From Escherichia coli (GTDB lineage: Bacteria > Pseudomonadota > Gammaproteobacteria > Enterobacterales > Enterobacteriaceae), in NCBI RefSeq assembly GCF_003018235.1, contig NZ_CP027438.1: a stretch of 64,000 nucleotides of DNA. One strand, given 5' to 3'. A model generated the notes under the pieces. The model was not told the origin of the DNA. It was given only the letters and a program-made list of their open reading frames with translations, and searched no databases. Below are positions 10,986 to 56,125 of the stretch, in pieces. Each line of letters starts with the position of its first letter. Within the stretch, counting starts at the first letter, position 1. The position numbers and the translations under genes were made by a program.

Positions 10986-11774
10986 TTAGATATCGGAACT
11001 TTCTAATCGGATGCGTTTCTCTTTCTGTCTGGTGAGGAATTTTTTCGGTGTCAACCCATAATATAAATTAAACACCTTGATGAAGTGAGAAACACTTGAT
11101 ATTCCTACCATACAAGATATTTTGCTCATTTGCAATTCATTTCTTAATATTAACATCGCTGCCTTTTTCATCCTCACTTCAAGAAGAATCTGGCAAAAAC
11201 TGGTATTCTCGGCACTCAGTTTTTTACGTATAGATATTTCAGACAAGCAGATTTCTTTTGCAATAGTTGATAACTTCCATTTTTTAGATGTGTCAAGCTC
11301 AATAATCCTACGTATTCTGTCACTAAATAAATTTGTTGTTGATGTTATTAATGCGTCAAATATCCTTTGAGGATCTTGTCCTTTAGATAAAAAGCATGCT
11401 AATTTATACAGTTTGAGCCTGTAGTTATTCGTTGATTTTATTGCTTTATATAACTCATTGGATAACTTATCTTTTTCTATTAAAAATATATAATTTTCTG
11501 TCTTATTTTTTTTTGTATGACCTAGGGATTTAAGCTTACCATCATAAAAAAATGGGGACATTATCTTAATTACATTATTAATATCGCCTTGGTTTAATTC
11601 GATGCAATCATATGGGGCAGTAGTTAGCAATCTTCTCTTTTCTATAAGAAGAAAGCAATTGCTTTTAATAGTGATTGCTTTTATCCCATTGGTAATGCTT
11701 ATATGACAGCCATTTGAATTTATCAAAATGTAGTCATTGGTATGGAGTTTTTTTCTTGTCTCTATCGTTTTCAT
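10986..11774 (-). CDS. AraC/XylS-family virulence regulator of the Rns/CfaD/AggR/PerA group
   Basis: C-terminal double-HTH region closely resembles Rns-family regulators (KISCMVGISSVSHFIKVFNLYYGLTPKKF); AT-rich; divergent from the aatD-like gene. Confidence 0.8.
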   Translation of the reverse strand: MKTIETRKKLHTNDYILINSNGCHISITNGIKAITIKSNCFLLIEKRRLLTTAPYDCIELNQGDINNVIKIMSPFFYDGKLKSLGHTKKNKTENYIFLIEKDKLSNELYKAIKSTNNYRLKLYKLACFLSKGQDPQRIFDALITSTTNLFSDRIRRIIELDTSKKWKLSTIAKEICLSEISIRKKLSAENTSFCQILLEVRMKKAAMLILRNELQMSKISCMVGISSVSHFIKVFNLYYGLTPKKFLTRQKEKRIRLESSDI

Positions 11775-12128
11775 ATAAAAATATATATACCGATTTTATG
11801 ATTCTAGAATGCATTATTATACTTATATTTTCATCATGATATGTTATATTTTTCAATATTCGGCTACTCAAAGTGAAGTTTATTGGTCCCTTTTTTGTTT
11901 CTTGTAGGAGGATATTTCAATTTATTAATTTCACTGGCTTTAGATACGTTGCTGATCAGTTCTTCAACATGGTTAAGTAAATCGGCTTTGTGTTTAATAT
12001 CGAAGTTGGCTGTATTCCAAAATACAGCAAAGAACCTTGCGAAGAAGTTCGAGAGCTATATAGCCTTACATGAACGATTACCAATTCTGATAGGTCGCTT
12101 AGGCATAACAATAAAATTATACGGAAAA

Positions 12129-13349
12129 ATGATTATAGATTTCCTCATGATATTATATTTGTTTTTTTTGCTCAAGTATGTGACTAAAGGAAAATTTACC
12201 ATCGCATTATTATTCTTGCTATTTTTTAATGTTTTATTTTTCGTCTTTATTTTTGATAATAGTTCTTGGGATGTTATTAAATCTAGTTATGGGATGGCAC
12301 CATTTGCTTTGTCATCTATAATAAATGCGCAGGTTATACTAGTATTTTTTTTGCGCAATAAAGGCGCTTATAAAATTGGACTGTCATCTTTTATCCCTCC
12401 AATTTTGTTTTCTTTCTGGGACTTTAATTTTATCTTTCCCGCTCATCCGTTGATGACTTTATATCAATATGATATCTTTTATAAGTTTCTTCCCAGATTT
12501 CACATAAATTTGATTAATGTAATTATATTATATACAATTCCGTTTTGTTTTTTGTTACCATTAAAAAGAATTATTTTAATTTTATTAATCGCATGTCTAT
12601 CATTTTTTACTAACTGGAATTTATCTGAACATAAAAAATTAGGTATAAAAGTTCTTATTGTACAGACGGGGATGTATGCATCAACACATGGCAGAATGGC
12701 TGACTTAAGGGATGAAGTTTTTAAGTACAGAGATGCTGACATTGTCATTTTTTCAGAATCACCAATTGTTGGATTTAAAGATGGTAGCCGGACTGCATTT
12801 AGCCGTGAATTTCTTGATGAGATAAAAAGAAAACGTGACGGGAAACTTTATATTCTTAATAGTTATGGGTTTATTGATGATGAAAGACACAATAACAATT
12901 TAAGCTTATATGTTTTAGATGGAAAAACCTTTGTTAAATATAAAAGTAAACTTGTACCTTTTTGGGAGACACCTGGTCTATTTTATAGAGATGTTGACTG
13001 GGAATCACCATATTTTTCCATTCCATCCACAAATAACAATGATAAATATAAATTCAGAAATATATATATAAACTCATATATTTGTTATGAGGCAATGTTT
13101 GTTAATCACTTCAACAAGTTAAGTGATTTAACAATAATACAATCAAATTATGAATCATTTAGTAAAGGTTATGATAGCGTAGTGAAGAATGGTAATGTTC
13201 TGGCTTATGTGAATAAATCATATAGTTTTAAAAATTTCATATCTGTGCAAAATATGGGGGGGACTATATTTGTCGATAGCTCAGGAAGGTTTCATTGGGA
13301 TGTATATAAAAAGTCCAAAGAAAAATCTGTATTTCTTTTGGAAATTTAA
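12129..13349 (+). CDS. aatD: Apolipoprotein N-acyltransferase (Lnt)-family protein, AatD-like
   Basis: Polytopic N-terminus plus CN-hydrolase domain with Lnt-type Glu (FSESP), Lys (YKSKLVPFWE) and Cys (ICYE) motifs; longer ORF from TTG 11883 is possible. Confidence 0.6.
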   Translation: MIIDFLMILYLFFLLKYVTKGKFTIALLFLLFFNVLFFVFIFDNSSWDVIKSSYGMAPFALSSIINAQVILVFFLRNKGAYKIGLSSFIPPILFSFWDFNFIFPAHPLMTLYQYDIFYKFLPRFHINLINVIILYTIPFCFLLPLKRIILILLIACLSFFTNWNLSEHKKLGIKVLIVQTGMYASTHGRMADLRDEVFKYRDADIVIFSESPIVGFKDGSRTAFSREFLDEIKRKRDGKLYILNSYGFIDDERHNNNLSLYVLDGKTFVKYKSKLVPFWETPGLFYRDVDWESPYFSIPSTNNNDKYKFRNIYINSYICYEAMFVNHFNKLSDLTIIQSNYESFSKGYDSVVKNGNVLAYVNKSYSFKNFISVQNMGGTIFVDSSGRFHWDVYKKSKEKSVFLLEI

Positions 13350-13559
13350 TTTTACATTTAATCCAGATGAAAATATATATGTGGTGTGGAACAGGCTTCG
13401 GTTGTCGAATAATGATTATTATTTCACAAATTATGAGAGACTTAGGAAGTAATAGAGTCATACCTATAGTTATTGATAATGAGCAATCAAATGTGCTGAC
13501 ATTTGTAGCAACATGTTTATGGTTAGATTTTTATCAGAAATTACGAACAACGCTATAGA

Positions 13560-14700
13560 TAACCTGTAAGTATCCTGCATAATTGTGGTATTCATATTTA
13601 GAGATCATACGGCATAATCAATCTATCAACGAAGGAGATCGCTATGCATAAACCTGTTGTACTGGGCATCAGATCATCGCTGTGATTAAGTCAGTTGAAG
13701 CCAGACGAACCGCTAAAGATGTCTGCCGGAAGGTCGGTATCTCTGAAGCCACCTACTAAACAGATGTTTGCTGACCTGAGTCTGGAGAACCGGGCGCTGA
13801 AAGACGTTATCGAAAAAAGCATTAAAACAAGCCTTTAAGCGTGAGCTGGTCACTCATCTGATAACGACATTCGGACTCAGTATCCGTCAGGCCTGCCGGA
13901 GTCTGAACCTGAGCAGAACGGTTTACCATTACCGCTGTCAACGCCACGATTTTGACCGTCCTGAAAGGTTAGATAAGCACGTTCTACACGGCCTTTTGCC
14001 TGACTGGTTTCTGCGCACAGCAGTGTGATATTGAGGGAGCGCATGACCCTGGCAAACTGAGCTTCACCGGGACCGGTGGTAGCATGCTTATTGTTTACCC
14101 GGAAGACACTGGCTTTGTCGCTGTAGAGGAACATGGGCTTACCATGTTTTCCGATATAGCTACGGGTCGCTTCAAAATAGGTAAATGTGGATTCAGATTT
14201 CACAAACAGCAAGTGCATCAGGCGACTGGTGGCATCGTCAACATAGACAAGAGCTGTACAGGGTCGACCCCGGTTTTCAAACCAGTGGTGGTCACAGCCA
14301 TCAATTTGTATCAGCTCGCCAGCACAAGGCCGCGGTAATGAGGCTGATGAATTTTAGGTGCGCGCTGTCCGCGTGGGGCCAAAATCACGGTATTGCTCCC
14401 TGATTATACTGAGTGCCTGATCTGTCAGTGACGCTGGCAACAGACGGTTACCAGTGCGGCCACGACTCTGGTTGTTCATGCCAAGCGGTCCGAGTTGACG
14501 ATGGCGTTTCAGCAGTCGGCTGCAATGACGTGGTGTAATGCCGAGCATCTCCGCAGCCTGGCCAGGACGCAGATTGCGATCGATGACATCCTGAAGGATT
14601 TTGAGGCGGTTGATTTCTTTCACGTTAAACATCCCGGCGTCATGTATAGCCATAGAAAACTCCTCATCAGGAAAAGTGAGTCGTTGTCTAGACATACAGA
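13560..14700. mobile_element. Nested IS debris: IS3-family orfA fragment and a disrupted rve-type transposase
   Basis: Plus-strand IS3-type OrfA pieces (KDVCRKVGISEATY, LENRALKDVIEK) at about 13620-13870; minus-strand ORFs 13877-14218 and 14354-14695 give an HTH N-terminus and integrase-core fragment in different frames. Confidence 0.45.
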
Positions 14701-14959
14701 TCTGAGAACTATCGCCTGGACATCCCTAATTGGGTAATTGGAGCCACAAAAGACATTAGCAGTGAGCCTCTACAATCTTGATGCGCACAATCTATCTTAT
14801 GTTAAATCTAGACAAAATAACGTCTAAAAGCGATACCTTATACAAATAACAACACTAAATTTTTACGCCAGTAGCCCGAACTAGACTGGCCCCCTGAATC
14901 TCCAGACAACCAGTATCACTTAAATAAGTGATAGTCTTAATACTAGTTTTTAGACTAGT

Positions 14960-16120
14960 CATTGGAGAACAGATGATTGATGTATTAGGGTCGGAGAAAC
15001 GCAGACGGCGTACCACACAGGAAAAGATCGCTATTGTGTCAGCGCCAGTGATATAAGACGGTAATTCACCATTTGGATTGTCCGCTCCACCCAACATGTT
15101 GTTTCCTTAAGGTTCTCACACCAGGAAGGAAGTCTTACTGCTGTGGCCGCCGGAGAACAGGTTGTTCCTGCCTCTGAACTTGCTGCCGCCATGAAGCAGA
15201 TTAAAGAACTCCAGCGCCTGCTCGGCAAGAAAACGATGGAAAATGAATTCCTCAAAGAAGCCGTTGAATATGGACGGGCAAAAAAGTGGATAGCGCATGC
15301 GCCCTTATTGCACGGGGATGGGGAGTAAGCTTCGTCAGCCGTTGTCTCCGGGTGTCGCATGCGCAGTTGCACGTCATTCTCAGACAAACCGATGACTGGA
15401 AGGATGGCCGCCGCAGTCGTTATACTGATGATACGGATCCATGTTATCGGAGAGCTGCCCACGTATGGTTATCGTCGGGTATGGGCGCTGCTTCGCAGAC
15501 AGGCAGAATTTGATGGTATGCCTGCGATCAATGCCAAACGTGTTTACCGGATCATGCACCAGAATGCGGAAAAACCTGCTGTACCGCCATCGAAACGGGC
15601 ACATACAGGCAGAGTGGCCGTTAAAGAAAGCAATCAGCGATGGTGCTCTGACGGGTTCGAGTTCTGCTGTGATCGTGAGGCACTGCACTGGGCGGTGACT
15701 ACCGGCGGCTTCAACAGTGAAACAGTACAGGACGTCATGTTGGGAGCGGTGGAACGCCGTTTCGGCAACGATCTTCCGTCGTCTCCAGTGGAGTGGCTGA
15801 CGGATAATGGTTCATGCTACCGGGCTAATGAAACACGCCAGTTCGCCCGGATGTTGGGACTTGAACCGAAGAACACGGCGGTGCGGAGTCCGGAGAGTAA
15901 CGGAATAGCAGAGAGCTTCGTGAAAACGATAAAGCGTGACTACATCAGTATCATGCCCAAACCAGACGGGTTAACGGCAGCAAAGAACCTTGCAGAGGCG
16001 TTCGAGCATTATAACGAATGGCATCCGCATAGTGCGCTGGGTTATCGCTCGCCACGGGAATATCTGCGGCAGCGGGTCTGTAATGGGGTAAGTGATAACA
16101 GATGTCTGGAAATATAGGGG
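14960..16120 (+). mobile_element. IS2-like element, degenerate
   Basis: orfA start MIDVLG..RRRRTTQEKIAIV is followed by a non-IS2 segment and stop; orfB split between ORFs 15286-15513 and 15359-16117 (frameshift), with recognisable InsD motifs ([27 protein letters not shown]). Confidence 0.65.
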
Positions 16121-16668
16121 CAAATCCACGAACCCAAAGTGGGTTATGTACAGATGAAGGCTGACAGTGTCATATACAGTCACGTGCTATTATTGGTTGG
16201 GCTATGTTGCCATGTCTGGAGGCGTTATGTCCCCCACAGGGCATTATCGTTCGCTTAGCATAGTTCAATATTACAAATGGTAGAATCACTTTTTAAATAA
16301 CATCCTATATATGCAGAGCTGCTGCACTATAACTTTGGTATCATCTATGGGGTAAGTGTAAAATATCAATAATGGCTCAAGTTACTTTCGTTATTATGTA
16401 AGGTATATATTCATGCATATTTATACGGTAGCCTATTATGTAGAGGATATACAATAGCTATGGTTTATTTTCCTTTGCTAGGATTTGTATGATTTTTTAC
16501 TCATTTACAGCATTGACATCAGTAGACTGTGATTCTAGGTGTGTAACCCGAAGATGTTATTTTTTATATCTAGTCAGTATACAGCCAAATAGAGTGCAGG
16601 TGTTTTTTGTTGCTATAAAAATCGTTGGAATAATTAAATGGTATTATCAATGAACCATCAGCAATAAT

Positions 16669-17796
16669 ATGTATATATATATAGTTGAAGCAATATTAAA
16701 TCTCAAAGAAAACATCAAATACACATTAACATTTATATTATTTTTATCACTTAGTTTTCTTGGAGTTATTATTACAGATTCTTTAATTTATAGCGTATCA
16801 ATACAGGCTGAAAAAGAATTAAAGTCTAATGGAAACAATATTATGTCTATTGATTTACATACCCCTACATCAGCAGATAGGATAAAGAAAGTATTAAGTA
16901 AATGTTGTACAGAGCTATCTTTTTCACAACATTCTTTTCTGAATGGAGGGAAATCACCTTATTCCAGTGACGGATTGCCCGTAATAGCTGTAGATAAAAA
17001 AGGGATTAGTCTTATTATGGATGAAAAAATTGGAAAAAAATTCGAAGGTAATGTGGCGGTTTACAATAATAATAAACAAACAGAGTCAATTAATCCAGAA
17101 TCTATATTCCTAAATGGCTTGCCTTTTCAAATTATTGGCATAAAGAATAAATCCAAAACAGAGTTTCTTGATAGTCTTGGGTTATCCACGAACAGTTCAA
17201 ACGAGAAATATTATATCCCTCTAGAGACTCTGTTTAGGTTTAATCTATCTAATGAGATCGATAATGTAAAAATAATAATGAATAGAGATGTAACCTCTGA
17301 CATGATAACAATGATAGAACATACACTAAATGAAAACAATATAAATAGATACACAATAACGACATCTTTAGATGCAAGAGAAATTGTGGATAAGGTATTA
17401 AACAGATTCTCTATTCTTACAAATTCAATATATATATTATTAACTACTACAGCTATTTTTAGTAGCATAACTGTATGTAAAAGAAATTTCTTTTCCAGAA
17501 CAACAGAGTACTCATTAAAATTAATACATGGTATATCTTATAGCTCTATAAGAACAATATTAATAATAGAGACCATTTTTACTGTTGCTGTAAGTCTATT
17601 ATTTTCCATTCTAATTTCGGCATTAACAATAATATCAATGTCGGGATTGCTATCTATTGATATAAGCATAAGATGGTTTATGATAATAATATCTTTAACT
17701 ATTGTACTATTAACTTGTTTTAGTGCTAACTTCTATTACAGCAATAAGACCTTTAAAATAAACCCTATCGAGCTAATAAGATTAAGAGCAAAATGA
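16669..17796 (+). CDS. aatP: ABC-transporter permease (MacB/FtsX-like), AatP-like
   Basis: 375 aa, N-terminal TM helix, periplasmic domain, C-terminal TM bundle; first gene of a permease/OMP/adaptor/ATPase set in aatPABC order. Confidence 0.6.
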   Translation: MYIYIVEAILNLKENIKYTLTFILFLSLSFLGVIITDSLIYSVSIQAEKELKSNGNNIMSIDLHTPTSADRIKKVLSKCCTELSFSQHSFLNGGKSPYSSDGLPVIAVDKKGISLIMDEKIGKKFEGNVAVYNNNKQTESINPESIFLNGLPFQIIGIKNKSKTEFLDSLGLSTNSSNEKYYIPLETLFRFNLSNEIDNVKIIMNRDVTSDMITMIEHTLNENNINRYTITTSLDAREIVDKVLNRFSILTNSIYILLTTTAIFSSITVCKRNFFSRTTEYSLKLIHGISYSSIRTILIIETIFTVAVSLLFSILISALTIISMSGLLSIDISIRWFMIIISLTIVLLTCFSANFYYSNKTFKINPIELIRLRAK

Positions 17797-19004
17797 AATA
17801 TTTCAAAAATTTGTCACTCATAGTCTTTGTTAATTTTTGCTTTTGTAGTAATGCCTTGTCCTCATGCAGTCTTGATGTATATTTGATGAAATCGAAAACA
17901 TATAGATCATTCAATATAGAGCAAGAAGAAACAAGCATACAAAATAAGCATTTTTCTTCGTCGTATTTACCAAGTATATCTGTAGGAATGGGGCAATATA
18001 TTAATAATGACAAAGGGTTCGTAGACCTTGGAAAGACTTCTTTTTATATTTCAGCGTCACAACTTATCTTTTCAGGTGAAAGTTTAGGATATAATAATAA
18101 AAAAAATGAAATTGATGATAATAGAAGGCATATTTCATTCGAAAAAGAAAAAAATGATATGTTACTGAAAATATATGAAGATACAATACAACATAAATAT
18201 TTAAGTGAAAATATAAAACTAACATTAAATCAACTAAATAAAGTTCAGGCTGAGTATCAAAAATCACTATTGGATTTAAAGTCTGGTAATATACCATCAC
18301 TAGAAGTAGATGTTAAGTCATTAAATGTTTCAAAAATGAAAAATACTCTTAATACACTTTACGATGACTTAAAATTACTTGAGGAAAAATTTATTGCTGA
18401 TTATTCAATACCTCCTGAAAATATATCTAAAATTACTGACAGTGATATTATATCATGTAAGTCAATGGGATATCGCGAGCTGCTCGAAACAAACAAACAG
18501 AATAAACTACAACAAGCAGATGTTGAACTTGATATCAATAAGTCGGCACTACTTCCGTCTGTATATTTATCTGTTGGGTTGACACCAAAAAATGAGGGAA
18601 CACTCAGAGACTTGAATCTTCGGACAATGAACTATAATGGTGGGATAAGTGTTAGCATTCCATTAACGAATATTTTTAATTCTTTCGCTAACCAAGAAAA
18701 ATTTGCACTTAGTGTTACTAAAGCTAATCTGGAGTCAGACGATGAGAAAAAAAAACTGCTTATAATGAAGAAGAATATTCTTAATAAATACTCGAACATT
18801 AAAAATGACATACCCATTTTGGAAAAAGAAGTTGAATTAAAAAGAAAAAAAATAGAATACCTGCAGTGGATGGTAAAAGATAAAAAAGAAAATGTGCTTT
18901 CATACCTTAACTCACAGGATGAATTATATGACTCAACAATTAAACTTAACAAATATAAGCGCGATCTCAAATATTACAAGCTTTATCTTGATTTTATTAA
19001 TTAA
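17793..19004 (+). CDS. aatA: TolC-like outer-membrane channel, AatA-like
   Basis: Signal peptide and coiled-coil-rich TolC-like sequence; start overlaps aatP stop. Confidence 0.6.
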   Translation: MKYFKNLSLIVFVNFCFCSNALSSCSLDVYLMKSKTYRSFNIEQEETSIQNKHFSSSYLPSISVGMGQYINNDKGFVDLGKTSFYISASQLIFSGESLGYNNKKNEIDDNRRHISFEKEKNDMLLKIYEDTIQHKYLSENIKLTLNQLNKVQAEYQKSLLDLKSGNIPSLEVDVKSLNVSKMKNTLNTLYDDLKLLEEKFIADYSIPPENISKITDSDIISCKSMGYRELLETNKQNKLQQADVELDINKSALLPSVYLSVGLTPKNEGTLRDLNLRTMNYNGGISVSIPLTNIFNSFANQEKFALSVTKANLESDDEKKKLLIMKKNILNKYSNIKNDIPILEKEVELKRKKIEYLQWMVKDKKENVLSYLNSQDELYDSTIKLNKYKRDLKYYKLYLDFIN

Positions 19005-19740
19005 TTTATTTCCATGTGCCTTGCATGCCGAAGTCTATTATGGCATTTTAAGAGGAAGTGAGTCTATTTTATACAAAAGTCCATATTCCGGATTTATTGA
19101 TATAAATAATTTAAAAGAAGGTGATATCCTAGAAAATGAAAATATTTTCACCATTCATAATTATGAGTATGACAATAAGAAAAAAATTCTTTCATTACAG
19201 ATAAAAAAAGAAGAAAAGCAGAGGAAAAGATTAAAAAGGCAATTGAAAGACTCTTTTTTGGCCTATCAAAATGGATTTTTGTCCCATAATGACTTGGCTA
19301 ATTATGAAGACAAATTGGATGATATAGAGCTTTCATTGATAGGTTTACGTTCTGATTTAAATACTTTGGATAATGTATTGCAGTTAGGTAAAGTGAATAT
19401 AGATAGACCTTTTATTGTAAGAGATATTGGTGTTACAAATCGACAATATGTTAATTCTGGAGATTCATTAATAAACATTGAATTATTAGATAATTTCTTC
19501 GTTGATATAAAAATTGATCCAGTTGTGTTTAAAGGTAATATAAAGAATAAAAACGTAAATTATGTGTCCATGGTTGGGAACGTAACTGGAAAGGCTTCTG
19601 TTGTAAGAATCTCTAGTGTCATTGATAACGCAGGTTCTAAAGCATCAGGAATGAGGATGGTCACTCTACTCATACATGGCGAGAGAAACACTCTGCAGTC
19701 TCTATTAGACACAGCATTTAAGATTGAATTTAATGATTAG
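18928..19740 (+). CDS. aatB: Membrane-anchored periplasmic adaptor, AatB-like
   Basis: N-terminal hydrophobic anchor (ISNITSFILILLINLF); start chosen at ATG 18928 with SD AGGAT; longer ORF from 18892 overlaps aatA. Confidence 0.5.
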   Translation: MTQQLNLTNISAISNITSFILILLINLFPCALHAEVYYGILRGSESILYKSPYSGFIDINNLKEGDILENENIFTIHNYEYDNKKKILSLQIKKEEKQRKRLKRQLKDSFLAYQNGFLSHNDLANYEDKLDDIELSLIGLRSDLNTLDNVLQLGKVNIDRPFIVRDIGVTNRQYVNSGDSLINIELLDNFFVDIKIDPVVFKGNIKNKNVNYVSMVGNVTGKASVVRISSVIDNAGSKASGMRMVTLLIHGERNTLQSLLDTAFKIEFND

Positions 19741-20362
19741 CTTATATATAAACAAAAAAGAATTCAGAGATAAGACAATACTCTCTGACACATGCATTGA
19801 GATTATTGAAGGCGGTTTTTATGTAATAACCGGTCCCTCGGGTGTCGGTAAAAGTTCATTGCTTAATATAATTGGTTTATTAGATGGAGATTTTGATGGA
19901 AACTATATTTTCTATGATAAAAAGATAAGTTTCAGTAACTACAATAGTACGCAAGAGCTAAGGAGGTTGTATTTTGGATATATATTCCAAGACTCATTGA
20001 TTAATGAGAGGCAAGATCTTATTCGTAATATTCTTTGTTCTGTTGATTATTCCCTGCAGAACAACAGGAGGCATCTTGTTAATCATTTTTTGTCAGTTGT
20101 TGGATTATCTTCAAGGACAGAGAGTGCTTCTGTTTTATCAGGGGGGGAAAAACAAAGGCTCGCTCTAGCTAGAGCACTAATAAAAAAACCCAAAATATTA
20201 TTAGCAGATGAGCCAACGGCTAGTCTTGACAGAGAAAATAAAGAAAAAATAATGGATATATTCAAAAAATTCACTAATGAAGGAGGTACTGTAGTAATGG
20301 TGACTCATGATTTGGAATTAATAGATGAAAAAATTCAAGTAATAAGACTTAATAATCATTAA
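19724..20362 (+). CDS. aatC: ABC-transporter ATP-binding protein, AatC-like
   Basis: Walker A GPSGVGKSS, ABC signature LSGGEKQR, Walker B ILLADEP; 212 aa. Confidence 0.75.
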   Translation: MNLMISLYINKKEFRDKTILSDTCIEIIEGGFYVITGPSGVGKSSLLNIIGLLDGDFDGNYIFYDKKISFSNYNSTQELRRLYFGYIFQDSLINERQDLIRNILCSVDYSLQNNRRHLVNHFLSVVGLSSRTESASVLSGGEKQRLALARALIKKPKILLADEPTASLDRENKEKIMDIFKKFTNEGGTVVMVTHDLELIDEKIQVIRLNNH

Positions 20363-20657
20363 GAATCGATAAGCTATTTTTATCATCGGGCGGCACTGTA
20401 AGCCAGCGATAAATACGCAACGAAACGTACCATGCTGACAGATATCTTTAACAGTAACTACCAGTATTATGGCTATCGTCGCCTGCATGCGATGCTCAGA
20501 TATGAGGGGCTATGATTCTCAGAAAAATCTGAACGCAGACTTATGGTTACACGCCCCGACGCTGAACATGGTCAACACCATGTTGGATAACGCTGTCGAA
20601 ACGTTAAATACAGACGACTGACTGATGATACACAGCGATAATATTAGATTTACTAAG

Positions 20658-23102
<2,445 letters not shown>

Positions 23103-50111: not shown

Positions 50112-51038
50112 TCATCCGCCATAATGCGCCACATTGTCGACTATCCACGCAGGTCCGGTGACTTCCGGCAGCTCATCGTCATCTGTCGGGGAAGACCATT
50201 CCAGTTCCCCCAACAGCACATCGACGAGCTCTCCGCGCTCATACAACTGCCAGCCACAGAAATCACAGCCCTGTTCGGCATACCAGTGCTCCAGCGTGCA
50301 GCTGAAACGGCGGCTTAATTCTGCAATAACGTCGCTTTCCGGCTGACACCACGGCGTGTCGAAATCAACCTGAATGAAGTTGTCTCCCTGACTGCTGATA
50401 TTCAGGTCATACCCACAAGGCCACTTCACGCCATACCGTTCTGTATACCAGTGATATGCAGAAGGAACACCGTTCAGAACACCACCGTTAAAGCCGTTCA
50501 CTTCAACATCCAGGCGGGTCGGCAGAACCGTCAGCAGGTCAAACGGCATGGTTTTTTCCGGCACTACGTTGTCACACAGGCGGTTCCACCACACCGATAC
50601 ATCCTCGTTACTCCAGAAGTCACACCAGTCACCTCTTTTTGCGGTGAAAAGTGCGGTGATGGTATCCCTGACATCGTCCAGTAATCCTTCCCAGCGACGT
50701 TGTCCAGTACCGCTCTGCAGCCAGAGTTCATGCAGCATCAGGCAGTTTTGCTCATCCAGCAGTACACCGTCCTGCAGGTATGTCAGCCAGCGGGTGAACG
50801 CGATATTCTCCGGCGATACAACGCCACGCCCGGCAGCCGTCAGTCCGGGGCATGGTTCAAACCGCACATCTTCAGTGGTCTGCAGAAGTCCGGCACTTCC
50901 GGCCAGAAACAGCTGAATACCTTCATTTGTGGCGCGGCGATAAAGCGGTGTGACTGCACCGCTGGCCAGTCGTTTAATCTCAGCGATCTGTGCCGGTTCA
51001 CCAGAAAAATACATACGATTCGAGCACCAGTTTGGCAT
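50112..51038 (-). CDS. Conserved hypothetical leading-region protein (about 308 aa, Cys/Trp-rich)
   Basis: ORF starting MPNWCSNRMYFSGEP...; no confident family assignment. Confidence 0.35.
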   Translation of the reverse strand: MPNWCSNRMYFSGEPAQIAEIKRLASGAVTPLYRRATNEGIQLFLAGSAGLLQTTEDVRFEPCPGLTAAGRGVVSPENIAFTRWLTYLQDGVLLDEQNCLMLHELWLQSGTGQRRWEGLLDDVRDTITALFTAKRGDWCDFWSNEDVSVWWNRLCDNVVPEKTMPFDLLTVLPTRLDVEVNGFNGGVLNGVPSAYHWYTERYGVKWPCGYDLNISSQGDNFIQVDFDTPWCQPESDVIAELSRRFSCTLEHWYAEQGCDFCGWQLYERGELVDVLLGELEWSSPTDDDELPEVTGPAWIVDNVAHYGG

Positions 51039-51431
51039 GGGAATTCTCCTCTCACATGCGGCCTCCATCAGGCCGTGCCGCACCTGTAACCGGGCGACCG
51101 CATACGAATGCAGGTGCGGCCCCGAAGCCGCTGCGCGTGGAGGAGGAACGACGAAACGTGACCGGGTGAGGATGCCGGCGACAGCGACACACTTGCATCG
51201 GATGCAGCCCGGTTAACGTGTCGGCACGGCCTGGGTAACCAGGTATTTTGTCCACAGAACAGTGCACAAAATGCTGTGGATAAGCTGGACACAGCACTCC
51301 ACAGCAGGCATACAGCCACACACTCAGAGAATTGAACATTTTTTAGTCACAATAATGGCATTTGACTGTGTGTGGATTCAGTTATTAGAGTACTGTATAT
51401 ACACACAGTAAAAGAAAAGGGAGATGAGAAC

Positions 51432-51611
51432 ATGCTCCGCATTGAAATTCTTTTCGACCGCCAGAGCACAAAAAACCTCAAATCAGGCACACTTCAGGCG
51501 CTACAGAATGAAATCGAACAACGTCTGAAACCACACTACCCGGAAATCTGGCTGCATATGTGGGAATCCCCGTCCTTCAGAGCGGGGAGCTGTCAACCAG
51601 CACTCCATTGA
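51432..51611 (+). CDS. DinI-like small protein (putative; C-terminus diverges)
   Basis: SD GGGAG upstream of ATG 51432; N-terminus MLRIEILFDRQ...GTLQALQNEIEQRL is DinI-like. Confidence 0.3.
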   Translation: MLRIEILFDRQSTKNLKSGTLQALQNEIEQRLKPHYPEIWLHMWESPSFRAGSCQPALH

Positions 51612-51694
51612 CTCAAATGGCGGGAAACGCGGAAATCTAAAAATTAAGCCGCACACCCCGCGAAATTTTGCAGGTTTCACGGAGCGAGACTTTT

Positions 51695-52087
51695 TTAGAT
51701 CAGGTTTTGCATCTTCACCCTAGCCGCTTTCAGACGGGCCTGTTCACCGTCATCCTGAGAGTATTCTGGTGAAACTGTACTCTGAAGCCCTCCCAACGCC
51801 TTCAGTACCTCTTTTAAATCACCGGAGGAGGGTTTCCAGCCTGTTATCCTGGCAATCTGACTAATGACCTCATCCGCATTCAGTTCTCTGGTGAATAGCG
51901 CGGTTAACACGGCGGGAATTCGCTCATCAAGCTGATGCATTATCAGGCCGGTTATCAAAGCCTGCCGATATAACTCCCCCCGTTTTTTCCGGGGAACAGT
52001 TTCGATTTCAGCCAGTGCAAGACAATCGGCAGAGTCCTCCGGGTGAAGGTAGAGTGAAAGTTTTTTCCTTTCTTCGCCGTCGTACAT
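51695..52087 (-). CDS. parR: ParR/StbB-like centromere-binding adaptor (type II partition)
   Basis: 130-aa gene immediately downstream of parM. Confidence 0.6.
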   Translation of the reverse strand: MYDGEERKKLSLYLHPEDSADCLALAEIETVPRKKRGELYRQALITGLIMHQLDERIPAVLTALFTRELNADEVISQIARITGWKPSSGDLKEVLKALGGLQSTVSPEYSQDDGEQARLKAARVKMQNLI

Positions 52088-52090
52088 CGA

Positions 52091-53065
52091 TTACTCCTCC
52101 GCTTTGAAGCGTGCAATAGCCTGGACCAGCGCTGTCTGAGGTTCATCCATAAGAACCACCTTTTCGCCAAGGTGGTTCCATGCCTTACGAACAGCATCAG
52201 CAATGAGTGCTGCCCCGCCACCGACAATATATACGCGGTTTACGTTTCGATACTGCAGCAAATCATCAACAACTAGCTCGCCCAGTTTATTTATCGCTGT
52301 ATCAATGGTATCCAGCACCAGATTTAGTTTAGAGACCTCATTTACAACCTGCCCCACAAAATCCAGGTTCTTCCTGTTTTTGATCAACTCGTCAGCAATC
52401 ATTGGACTGGTATCACTGCTGGCCATTTTCAGTGCAGTGAGCGTGGCTTTCGTGACCATTGATACACCAATATCAGGATTACCATGTACTGCCGAAACAT
52501 CCTCAAACTGGCCAACAATAACCCCGACATCCAGAGTTGTACCACCGAGATCGATAACCAATGATTTTTCGTACTGACCAACATTGTCAGCAACTAGGCG
52601 AGTAAATACAGCCGGGAGTGATTCAGGCATCACTTCAACGCTTTTAATGGTAAAAGTTCCCCCTTTGTTCAGGGTGACTTCCCGCATCAGGTTGCGAATT
52701 TTTCTCTCAATGTTAAGCGTATTTTTCTGGCAGTCGGCCGTGTAAAACTCGCTGATAGGTAACGTAACAGTGAGATCGATCTCCTGGGGTTCAATTCCAC
52801 TGTTCAGTAATGCGTGGTGAACTGCCAACACATTTGTATCAGAGTACTGATACTCAATATGAGTCGTGCTGATCGCATCTTCGCTGACCGGGTCGTAGGT
52901 ATATTTACGGCCATCAAGCAGATAGTTATAGGTACGACTGCTGCCTAAGCCCTCGACTTTCCAGTTATGGCGAAAAGAGTTCACTGATACCGCACTTTTC
53001 AGCGTCTTGCCTTCAAACCAGGCAAGTTTCACATTTGTAGAACCATCATCGCAAAAAATTTTCAT
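52091..53065 (-). CDS. parM: ParM/StbA actin-like segregation ATPase
   Basis: Start MKIFCDDGSTNVKLAW (actin-fold phosphate-1 motif), later LVIDLGGTTLDV and IVGGGA motifs. Confidence 0.8.
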   Translation of the reverse strand: MKIFCDDGSTNVKLAWFEGKTLKSAVSVNSFRHNWKVEGLGSSRTYNYLLDGRKYTYDPVSEDAISTTHIEYQYSDTNVLAVHHALLNSGIEPQEIDLTVTLPISEFYTADCQKNTLNIERKIRNLMREVTLNKGGTFTIKSVEVMPESLPAVFTRLVADNVGQYEKSLVIDLGGTTLDVGVIVGQFEDVSAVHGNPDIGVSMVTKATLTALKMASSDTSPMIADELIKNRKNLDFVGQVVNEVSKLNLVLDTIDTAINKLGELVVDDLLQYRNVNRVYIVGGGAALIADAVRKAWNHLGEKVVLMDEPQTALVQAIARFKAEE

Positions 53066-53199
53066 ACCATCTCCATTTATACTCAATTTGAGTGTTCATC
53101 TTCGCCCAATAACTACTCACATTAAGTAAATATGTTCATAAACCACAGGTAAGTACTCAAACTGCGTACTTCACGGGGGCAGTTAACTACTCAATTTGA

Positions 53200-53300
53200 G
53201 CATTATATCATTTATCTTGCAGCAATCTAGCATTTATCTAGCATAAATCTTGCTGCAAGATTCCACACAAAAAAAGAATGCAGCAAGATTGCTGCATCCC
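53200..53300. repeat. Centromere-like repeats (parC-type) between parB and parM
   Basis: Several copies of CTTGCAGCAA / TGCAGCAAGATT in both orientations, plus ACTCAA-containing repeats upstream of parM. Confidence 0.5.
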
Positions 53301-53303
53301 GGA

Positions 53304-53678
53304 TTAATAGCTCTGTTTTTCCTTATATGCCTCAACTGCTTTTTCCAGAACTTCCACTAGTTTCAACCCCTCACGCTCTGCGATATCCCGGATCTCTTGG
53401 TCGAAAGCAGGTGTGACACGTGTTGCAAATGCCAGCGTCCTGTTTGTCTTTCTGGCAGAACGGCCATCGCGGCGGGTATATGCCTCGGTCACTGTTTGCG
53501 TAACCACAGGCTCATGGTGCACTGGCGATGAGTCTGCCTGTTGTCTCTGAATATCAGTGGCAGCGACAGCCGGAGCTATCTCAGGCGCATTCAGGCTGGT
53601 AGCCACTTCGTCGGGGCCCGGGGGTACCCCCAGCCCACCACGGGTCCTTTTAGTCTTAAGTTTTGATGCATCAGCCAT
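53304..53678 (-). CDS. parB: Small ParB/ParG-like centromere-binding protein (probable RHH)
   Basis: 124 aa, disordered basic N-terminus, C-terminal RHH-like segment; follows parA. Confidence 0.55.
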   Translation of the reverse strand: MADASKLKTKRTRGGLGVPPGPDEVATSLNAPEIAPAVAATDIQRQQADSSPVHHEPVVTQTVTEAYTRRDGRSARKTNRTLAFATRVTPAFDQEIRDIAEREGLKLVEVLEKAVEAYKEKQSY

Positions 53679-54310
53679 TACTCTTCTCCAATCTTATCGA
53701 TGAGTGCCTGGATAAGTTCATCAGCTCTCTCGTTTAAACCTTTATAACGTGTTTCTGTCACTGCGAGTCCTGAATTCATCGCTTTTCTGTATGCTGGCTT
53801 CTCAAAAAGGCATCCAGATAAAGTTTCATAACCTGCTTCACTGATATATGCACGAGCATCCAGCTCTTCCGCTTCGGTACCTACTCTGCTTAAAGCGAAG
53901 ACCAGTTTTGAACGTGGTACACCTTCTTTTACCAGCGCGTTGAAAACTTTAATGGCCGGGACAAGATCGTCAAGGGAGGCCCCCGTTGGCTGGACGATAA
54001 GGTCGGCGACCTTAGCAATTTCTGAAGTCCCTTTGCTTGCACGAGCTGGGCCATCAAGAATCAGAAGGTCAAAATCGCCGGCAGATTCTATCGCCTGCTT
54101 TGCTGTTGAAAACACTTCAACTGAAGCAACCGGTGGCAAACCAGCTGACAGACGTCGACGATGCCACTCAGCACTCGTTGCCTGTTCCAGGTCGAGATCA
54201 GCTAATTTTGTTTTGATGCCACAGGCGGATGCTTCACGCGCTAACGCTCTCGCTTTAGTGCTTTTGCCCACACCACCTTTCTGGGAAATAAAACCAACTA
54301 TCCAGGCCAT
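53678..54310 (-). CDS. parA: ParA-family Walker-type partition ATPase (type Ib)
   Basis: Deviant Walker A KGGVGKST; 210 aa. Confidence 0.8.
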   Translation of the reverse strand: MAWIVGFISQKGGVGKSTKARALAREASACGIKTKLADLDLEQATSAEWHRRRLSAGLPPVASVEVFSTAKQAIESAGDFDLLILDGPARASKGTSEIAKVADLIVQPTGASLDDLVPAIKVFNALVKEGVPRSKLVFALSRVGTEAEELDARAYISEAGYETLSGCLFEKPAYRKAMNSGLAVTETRYKGLNERADELIQALIDKIGEE

Positions 54311-54319
54311 TTAGCCTCC

Positions 54320-54740
54320 TTTACTTGCTGCTATCTTGCAGCAAACATAGATATAAACCAAGTTGAGGTTAGGTAAAATAACTCTTCCAGAACAAGATAA
54401 CAGCTTGCAGCAAGATTACAACAATCAAAAATCTAGCAGCAAGATTTAATCTTGCTATTCAGAAGAGTGCTGGAATTGACTGCCGAATACTTGTGTCACG
54501 TTAACAATAATAAAAGCTGCAAGCTTTATGCAATCTTGCAGCAACAATAAAAGAAAACTCATTCAGAATTGCATCGACAGATGCAGCAAGATTGCCACAA
54601 GCATGCACACAGCAAAACATGAGCTGAGCGCTATGCTATACCACCAGAAAATGATTGTCTGGAAACTAAGTCACTATAAGTCCCGGCATCTACAGGCAGC
54701 ATGATATAAGCAATCTATTTTATTGCAGCTATCATGCTGA
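54320..54740. repeat. Centromere-like repeat array upstream of parA
   Basis: At least six copies of TTGCAGCAAGAT-type motifs in both orientations. Confidence 0.5.
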
Positions 54741-54964
54741 AAGATTGCTGTTAGAATCAGGCAGCGCTCGCCGCAGCCATGTAACCGAGCGTAGCGAGCG
54801 AACTGGCGAGGAAGCGAAGAGGTATCGTTCCTGCAGATAGCTCTTACGCTCAACACAAGAATATTTTTCCATCCTCTGTGGGAAACAGGTCAACGTCGTG
54901 GACGGCCTGATCTGCGGGAAACACCACAAGTATAGGCGCACACGGATAGCCTGTTCAGGGCAAT

Positions 54965-55065
54965 AAGTGTGACAATCTACCCTCATGTATAGTGACAAAT
55001 CACCCTCAACCTGCCGGATCAAATGTGACGAACCACCCTCAAATCTGTGACAGATAACCCTCAAA
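54965..55065. repeat. incC: RepFIA incC-type iterons downstream of repE
   Basis: Four direct repeats GTGACA-N4-ACCCTCA at about 54967, 54992, 55025 and 55046. Confidence 0.65.

Positions 55066-56125
<1,060 letters not shown>

Follow-up and report, generated by a model that had tools for sequence, protein, structure and literature searches.

Tandem type Ib and type II partition operons on an F-type plasmid of Escherichia coli probably form two independent systems

Results

Organization of the par locus

The stretch of Escherichia coli DNA analysed here, 64,000 nucleotides of contig NZ_CP027438.1 (assembly GCF_003018235.1) and referred to below as the window, contains a four-gene par cassette of an F-type plasmid. 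The list of open reading frames (ORFs) placed all four genes on the minus strand, in the 5' to 3' order parA, a gene for a 124-aa partner protein ('ParB'), parM and parR. The genes lie head-to-tail; the start of the partner gene overlaps the parA stop codon by 1 nt (TAATG) and a spacer of 238 bp separates the partner gene from parM. The four genes are:

54310..53678, minus strand: parA, 210 aa, type Ib partition ATPase; Pfam CbiA, MipZ and ParA
53678..53304, minus strand: partner gene ('ParB'), 124 aa, candidate centromere-binding adaptor
53065..52091, minus strand: parM, 324 aa from the RefSeq ATG, actin-like ATPase; StbA_N E 1e-68, ParM_N E 4e-43
52087..51695, minus strand: parR, 130 aa, ParMRC adaptor; Plasmid_stab_B E 3e-28

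Analysis of the parA product indicated that it is a small ATPase without an N-terminal DNA-binding domain, as in type Ib systems, with a deviant Walker A motif (KGGVGKST) at residues 11-18. Its score against the NCBIfam family ParA_partition was 95 bits, which is below the cut-off, and the nearest solved structures were ParF/ParA of TP228 (E 7e-7, residues 4-188). The parM product matched the structures of R1 ParM with an E-value of 3e-82, and the parR product matched PDB 2jd3, deposited as 'STBB protein' (E 5e-34), which we take to be the ParR of pB171. The second operon therefore has the three components of a type II ParMRC system, namely an actin-fold ParM, a parR gene downstream of it and parC repeats upstream, over the putative promoter.

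The 124-aa partner of ParA

Homologue alignments revealed three parts in the partner. Residues 1-40 at the N-terminus form a basic, conserved peptide, a variable linker comes next, and the C-terminal domain (about residues 80-122) is predicted to be of the ribbon-helix-helix (RHH) type. The consensus of the N-terminal segment is MADASKLKxKR...LGxPPGPDEVATSLNAPEIAP, and the C-terminal 60 residues are conserved as well. A profile of close homologues compared with the PDB retrieved only designed helical proteins and a deeper profile was needed; the deep profile of the family matched the RHH protein ORF56 of pRN1 (2k9i) with an E-value of 0.006. Several members of the family gave weak matches to RHH Pfam families.

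The AlphaFold model of the monomer was poor (pLDDT 62) and had no strand, and it was replaced by a fused-dimer model in which two C-terminal domains were joined by a linker and which was computed from an alignment of 64 family members. The fused-dimer model showed the strand-helix-helix arrangement twice, with pLDDT >90 in the core and a pTM of 0.66, and its best fold matches were single-chain Arc (1u9p, probability 0.97), TraY of the F relaxosome, Arc, CopG and ParG. The prediction of an RHH-like partner is supported by the ORF56 profile match, the weak matches to RHH Pfam families, the fused-dimer model and its fold matches.

The partner family comprises 439 clusters at 50% identity. It is found in 459 PLSDB records, about 350 of which carry a copy at least 90% identical, and the protein is annotated as 'hypothetical protein' in every PLSDB record whose annotation was examined.

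Repeat arrays of the type Ib operon

The parA-partner operon is flanked on both sides by palindromic boxes (Ib boxes) with the core TTGCWGCAA:

54325..54750, no strand: upstream Ib array, core TTGCWGCAA, often ATCTTGCWGCAAGAT; boxes 54325-54344 (double, immediately 5' of the ribosome-binding site), 54402-54416, 54431-54445, 54533-54547 and 54581-54597, and a weak one at 54723-54745
53214..53297, no strand: downstream Ib array; boxes 53214-53228, 53247-53261 and 53278-53297
Candidate target duplex for the RHH dimer of the partner: TTGCAGCAA

The 11-mer TGCWGCAAGAT and its complement occur in eight copies in the window, all eight of them within 53214-53290 or 54333-54592, while by our own estimate about 0.06 copies of an 11-mer would be expected by chance in 64 kb. 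When one mismatch at most was allowed, TTGCWGCAA gave 28 matches in the window, with 11 of the 28 in the approximately 490 bp of the two spacers. The 9-bp palindromic core lengthens in many copies to the 15-bp palindrome ATCTTGCWGCAAGAT, and the box at 53247-53261 is a perfect 15-bp palindrome, ATCTTGCTGCAAGAT.

In the upstream array, the double box proximal to parA and the boxes clustered at 54402-54445 have been kept in an alignment of seven diverged loci. The length of this array varies between lineages through duplication, since a Salmonella relative (locus L005, 3040-3300) carries a tandem duplication of about 151 bp with Ib boxes upstream of parA. An ORF of 58 aa on the plus strand (54528-54704), opposite in direction to parA, lies inside the upstream array and is probably spurious.

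ParR boxes and fine structure of the spacer

The spacer between the partner gene and parM carries, besides the downstream Ib array, the following elements:

53080..53201, no strand: parC of ParMRC, palindrome ACTCAAnTTGAGT; boxes 53188-53201, 53154-53167, 53114-53127 (degenerate) and 53080-53093
53202..53210, minus strand: putative parM promoter, read from the sequence; extended -10 element TGATATAAT, with the -35 region (about 53225-53233) inside an Ib box
53275..53300, minus strand: terminator-like hairpin from the terminator scan; 11 pairs, 4-nt loop and T-run

Palindromes of the ACTCAATTTGAG type are sited only in front of parM. The sequence TACTCAATTTGAG, which contains the palindrome ACTCAAnTTGAGT, is present in two exact copies at 53080 and 53188, and degenerate copies of the ParR box were identified at 53114 and 53154; the spacing of the four boxes is 34, 40 and 34 bp.

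The hairpin lies directly 3' of the stop codon of the partner gene and its arms are two inverted Ib boxes. Alignment of the spacers of six lineages showed that the GCAGC...GCTGC arms and the T-run of the hairpin are invariant, and that the hairpin is followed by an invariant Ib palindrome and then by the box CTAGATTGCWGC. A TAnnnT hexamer, which all six lineages have at one and the same column of the alignment, is found 16-17 bases beyond the latter box; in four of the lineages it is preceded by TG, as in an extended -10 element. ParR box 1 starts on the base right after the -10 element of parM.

A ParR box with one mismatch, TACTCAATATGAG, is present at 52851-52863, about 200 nt into parM, and TTGAGT occurs at the same offset in relatives. 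This box was rejected as a fifth ParR site; it encodes the peptide HIEY, which is conserved at the same codon position in relatives, and coding constraint is thus its likely explanation. The Rfam scan of 51400-55100 gave nothing meaningful.

These results confirm the observation in an earlier note on this DNA, whose coordinates, 51695-54740, fit the locus well, and support its interpretation in part. The note had read the genes as those of a ParM/ParR pair lying head-to-tail after a type Ib ParA and its small RHH-like partner, and this agrees with the Pfam, structure-profile and fold matches, the RHH domain being a prediction. It had also described the two operons as co-directional, which they are, and had placed repeat arrays upstream of parA and between the partner gene and parM, where the two clusters of TGCWGCAAGAT copies were located.

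Conservation and selection

The order parA, partner gene, parM and parR is kept in Salmonella (L005-L007), Erwinia persicina (L008), Serratia (L011), Hafnia (L012), Providencia (L015) and Klebsiella (L016), and umuDC usually comes next after the tandem four-gene cassette. The Salmonella adaptor (L005-L007) is 61% identical to the partner of the window. The whole locus was found in 301 PLSDB records at a coverage of at least 80%, and the type Ib module alone in 350.

Spacers were scanned in six diverged loci (L005, L008, L010 from Erwinia typographi, L011, L012 and L015). Boxes of the TTGCWGC type were detected before parA and again after the adaptor gene in all six, while ACTCAnnnTGAGT boxes were located in front of parM in five; the exception, the Erwinia typographi locus, has no parMR, yet the Ib boxes after its adaptor gene are kept. 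A homologous pair that stands alone without parMR was identified on the Xanthomonas plasmid pXcB (L014), with an adaptor 50% identical to that of the window and a type Ib operon bordered at each end by a variant box, TTGCTGCTAGGTAGCAGCTA.

The conservation of the spacer elements, as mean pairwise identity in the six-lineage alignment, was as follows:

Ib elements: 15-bp Ib palindrome 0.90; Ib box at the -35 region 0.74; hairpin 0.68
ParR boxes: box 1 0.85; box 2 0.81; box 3 0.14 (not conserved); box 4 0.58
Remainder of the spacer: 0.36

Comparison with the Klebsiella locus gave dN/dS values of 0.03 for parA, 0.13 for the adaptor gene, 0.06 for parM and 0.24 for parR, and synonymous sites were saturated against more distant loci (pS about 0.8). 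All four genes are under purifying selection and, judged from their sequences, neither operon looks inactive.

Plasmid context

The upstream neighbours of the cassette are repE of an IncFIA replicon and the incC iterons, and over the par locus the window is 99.9% identical to a 69-kb plasmid of E. coli O158:H23 typed IncFIA/IncFIC, on which a type IV pilus operon is present as well. The longest ORF of repE (55066-55869) codes for 267 aa and starts 16 codons upstream of the 251-aa RepE in a near-identical RefSeq record; the additional 16 N-terminal residues are probably not translated.

A non-coding segment of 133 bp (window 54762-54894) matches thousands of plasmids, and it is found between repE/incC and sopA in F-like plasmids and between rep and parA in IncR plasmids. 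The position of this segment in front of sopA indicates that the par cassette sits exactly where sopABC lies in F, and the arrangement looks as if one partition module had been exchanged for another at a conserved junction. An apparent wide spread of the locus through 1,624 Klebsiella records was rejected, because those matches came from the same 133-bp backbone segment.

Downstream of parR only a short impC gene (51432-51611) and a DUF1281 gene (50112-51083) are present. In relatives a full umuD/umuC pair (impAB-like) lies between parR and the DUF1281 gene, and a deletion seems to have removed it from the window.

The matching record NZ_CP076711.1 has a type IV pilus operon resembling bfp or TCP (window about 10400-22700), with genes for a secretin, two ATPases, a prepilin peptidase and a TcpQ-family protein. 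The same record has an F-type tra region that is truncated, and IncFII as its second replicon. Given the pilus operon, the truncated tra region and the IncFII replicon, the plasmid is likely of the virulence type.

Discussion

Two partition systems in one cassette

We consider it probable, at roughly 0.75, that the conserved four-gene cassette comprises two partition systems that are independent of each other and probably active. The analysis established the genes, the folds, where the boxes lie, the conservation and the purifying selection, and from these we infer how binding, regulation and segregation may proceed. The array between the partner gene and parM reads as the type Ib system's own downstream site, because its boxes persist without parMR in Erwinia typographi (L010) and in Xanthomonas (L014). 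The partner would most likely dimerise through its C-terminal RHH domain and bind the TTGCWGCAA-type boxes, and its basic N-terminal peptide would most likely stimulate the ATPase of ParA and thereby position plasmids over the nucleoid. The boxes next to the ribosome-binding site of parA, on its upstream side, probably provide autorepression, and the type Ib operon would end in the terminator hairpin built from two Ib boxes. ParR, for its part, may bind the three or four ACTCAAnTTGAGT palindromes that start right after the -10 element of parM, which would place it over the parM transcription start, and ParM filaments would then push plasmid copies apart.

Three other readings of the locus were weighed. 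An unlikely one is that a single system segregates the plasmid while the other is redundant, decaying or repurposed, with ParMR, beside the leading region, serving in conjugation or establishment or with the partner acting purely as a transcriptional repressor. In its favour, one of two par systems dominates in SCP1 (PMC13245405), ParM and ParR of R1 are reported to enhance conjugative transfer (PMC4949242), and parMR shows a consistent linkage to umuDC and to genes of the leading region. The four genes are, however, full length with dN/dS values of 0.03-0.24, and the cis boxes of both systems have been kept across lineages whose synonymous sites are saturated.

Still less probable is a single four-gene operon driven from a parA promoter, in which the spacer elements would be RNA-level or operator signals and there would be no second centromere. 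The co-directional genes, the shortness of the 238-bp spacer and the lack of a strong -35 element before parM are compatible with such an operon, but the conserved hairpin with its T-run directly after the partner-gene stop and the conserved extended -10 that abuts ParR box 1 argue for separate transcription, and the homologous parM of the pMAR2 locus, our reference for the pB171 type, is transcribed independently from the same arrangement of elements. A truly shared centromere, as the title of the earlier note implies, with the partner and ParR on the same TTGCAGCAAGAT-type array, is very improbable, for although boxes of both types come to lie within 15 bp (53188-53228) in a conserved arrangement, their motifs are unrelated in sequence, the region upstream of parM in pMAR2 has ParR boxes and lacks TTGCWGCAA boxes, and in the loci without parMR the Ib boxes flank the parA-partner pair and occur downstream of the partner gene all the same.

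Several observations weigh against two independent, active systems as we propose them. Support for this partner family is wholly computational: the 124-aa protein matched no Pfam or NCBIfam family, and its RHH assignment comes from weak E-values (0.006 by sequence and 0.12 by Foldseek) and from an artificial fused-dimer model. The hairpin at 53275-53300 could be a terminator only and not a binding site. The consensus promoter scan called no promoter for parA or parM, in the latter case because the -35 element is weak, and no convincing parA promoter was found by eye in the upstream alignment. Furthermore, ParA and ParM gave incongruent identity matrices, the ParA of the window being nearest to that of Hafnia (93%) and its ParM to that of Serratia (79%), which indicates that the two modules recombine independently, presumably within the spacer, and argues against a tight functional coupling. 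Finally, more distant ParMR modules (63%, 56% and 48% identity) occur by themselves, without a type Ib neighbour.

Possible cross-regulation

One Ib box covers the parM -35 region, and this position suggests that the type Ib adaptor may also repress parMR, in a cross-regulation like that of pB171. In pUTI89, whose locus is of the pB171 type, deletion of parB raised stbA expression 16-fold (PMC9800825), so that cross-talk between a type Ib system and ParMR exists in the sister architecture. Whether the RHH adaptor is the master regulator of the whole cassette, repressing parMR through the -35 box, is a more tentative matter and we regard it as somewhat doubtful. If it were true, two unrelated type Ib lineages, the tandem one described here and the divergent par2 of pB171, would have been wired independently to the same ParMRC clade, and this would point to selection for coordinated nucleoid positioning and filament pushing and not to simple redundancy.

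Significance

A census of 2026 lists 971 PLSDB plasmids that combine a type I system having an RHH ParB with a type II system (PMC13245405), and the combination of types Ib and II as such is therefore already known. Our search of the open-access literature for the box motif, in which earlier work may be missed, gave unrelated papers only, and within the same literature the adaptor family, the box motif and the conserved tandem architecture appear to be undescribed. The cassette is a common variant of the known double par locus and represents ordinary biology with one modest, probably regulatory twist, and current understanding is not overturned. Plasmids with two systems are common and the cassette bears on why they keep both. 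A protein annotated as 'hypothetical' is now given a name, a predicted fold and a candidate motif, TTGCWGCAA, and the spread of its family includes plasmids of Klebsiella, Salmonella and pathogenic E. coli. The motif could help to predict partition-based incompatibility among resistance and virulence plasmids of the IncF type.

Comparison with known partition systems

The cassette shares its position with sopABC of F, after repE, incC and the conserved 133-bp segment, but sopABC is of type Ia with a helix-turn-helix ParB, whereas the window has a type Ib plus type II cassette instead. ParMRC of R1 is a more distant relative of the second operon, R1-type ParM being only about 42% identical. The R1 centromere overlaps the promoter and its parC consists of ten 11-bp iterons, while the parC of the window has three or four palindromic boxes.

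Among type Ib systems, ParF/ParG/parH of TP228 resembles the first operon in that ParF is the nearest solved relative of ParA and ParG is among the fold matches of the partner. In ParG a flexible tail at the N-terminus precedes a C-terminal RHH domain, and parH lies upstream only and is made of ACTC tetramers. The adaptors are without sequence similarity, and the window, in contrast to TP228, has palindromic boxes of 9-15 bp on both sides of the operon. The type Ib ParAB of the IncI1 plasmid pESBL, with its arrays of GATAACAA octamers, is a partition locus shown to work (PMC7602700); it differs in its motif and adaptor family and has no parMR attached.

The closest likeness is to the double par locus of pB171, which is made up of par1 (parMRC) and par2 (parABC) and is of a type also found in pMAR2 and pUTI89, and the earlier comparison with that locus holds for the type II half and fails for the type Ib half. 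ParM and ParR are homologues of the par1 proteins, with 66% and 46% identity, respectively, to those of pMAR2. The core of the ParR box, ACTCAATTTGAG, is identical and follows directly after the parM -10 element in both, and the two ParR boxes of pMAR2, TACTCAATCTGAG and TACTCAATTTGAG, match those of the window. In both loci an actin-type system adjoins a type Ib one, sites of the type Ib adaptor, putative in the window, are located upstream of the parM -10 element, and there is a link to umuDC. The type Ib operon is flanked by two repeat arrays in both, named parC1 and parC2 in pB171; this flanking has been described for pB171 par2 (PMC4270457), and pB171 par2, pSM19035 and pESBL are all reported to have arrays at either end of a type Ib operon (PMC7602700).

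The type Ib half, on the contrary, is not par2. ParA is only 29-31% identical to its pB171-type counterpart, BLASTP gave no alignment between the partner and the pB171-type ParB, the profile comparison of these two proteins (hhalign) gave a probability of 0.1%, and the repeat motifs of the type Ib systems differ, those of par2 being hexamers. In the pB171 type the operons diverge from a common parC1 region, and those of pMAR2 and pUM146 are divergent, whereas those of the window are co-directional; in the window the parM promoter adjoins the downstream Ib array and a terminator lies between the operons, while in the pB171 type the promoter adjoins the upstream array. The ParM of pMAR2 falls inside the identity range of the ParMs of the tandem loci, which indicates that the same ParMRC clade has been paired with two unrelated type Ib lineages in two orientations. 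With the same ParMRC clade, another type Ib partner and another orientation, pB171 offers a natural comparison by which it can be tested whether cross-regulation is selected.

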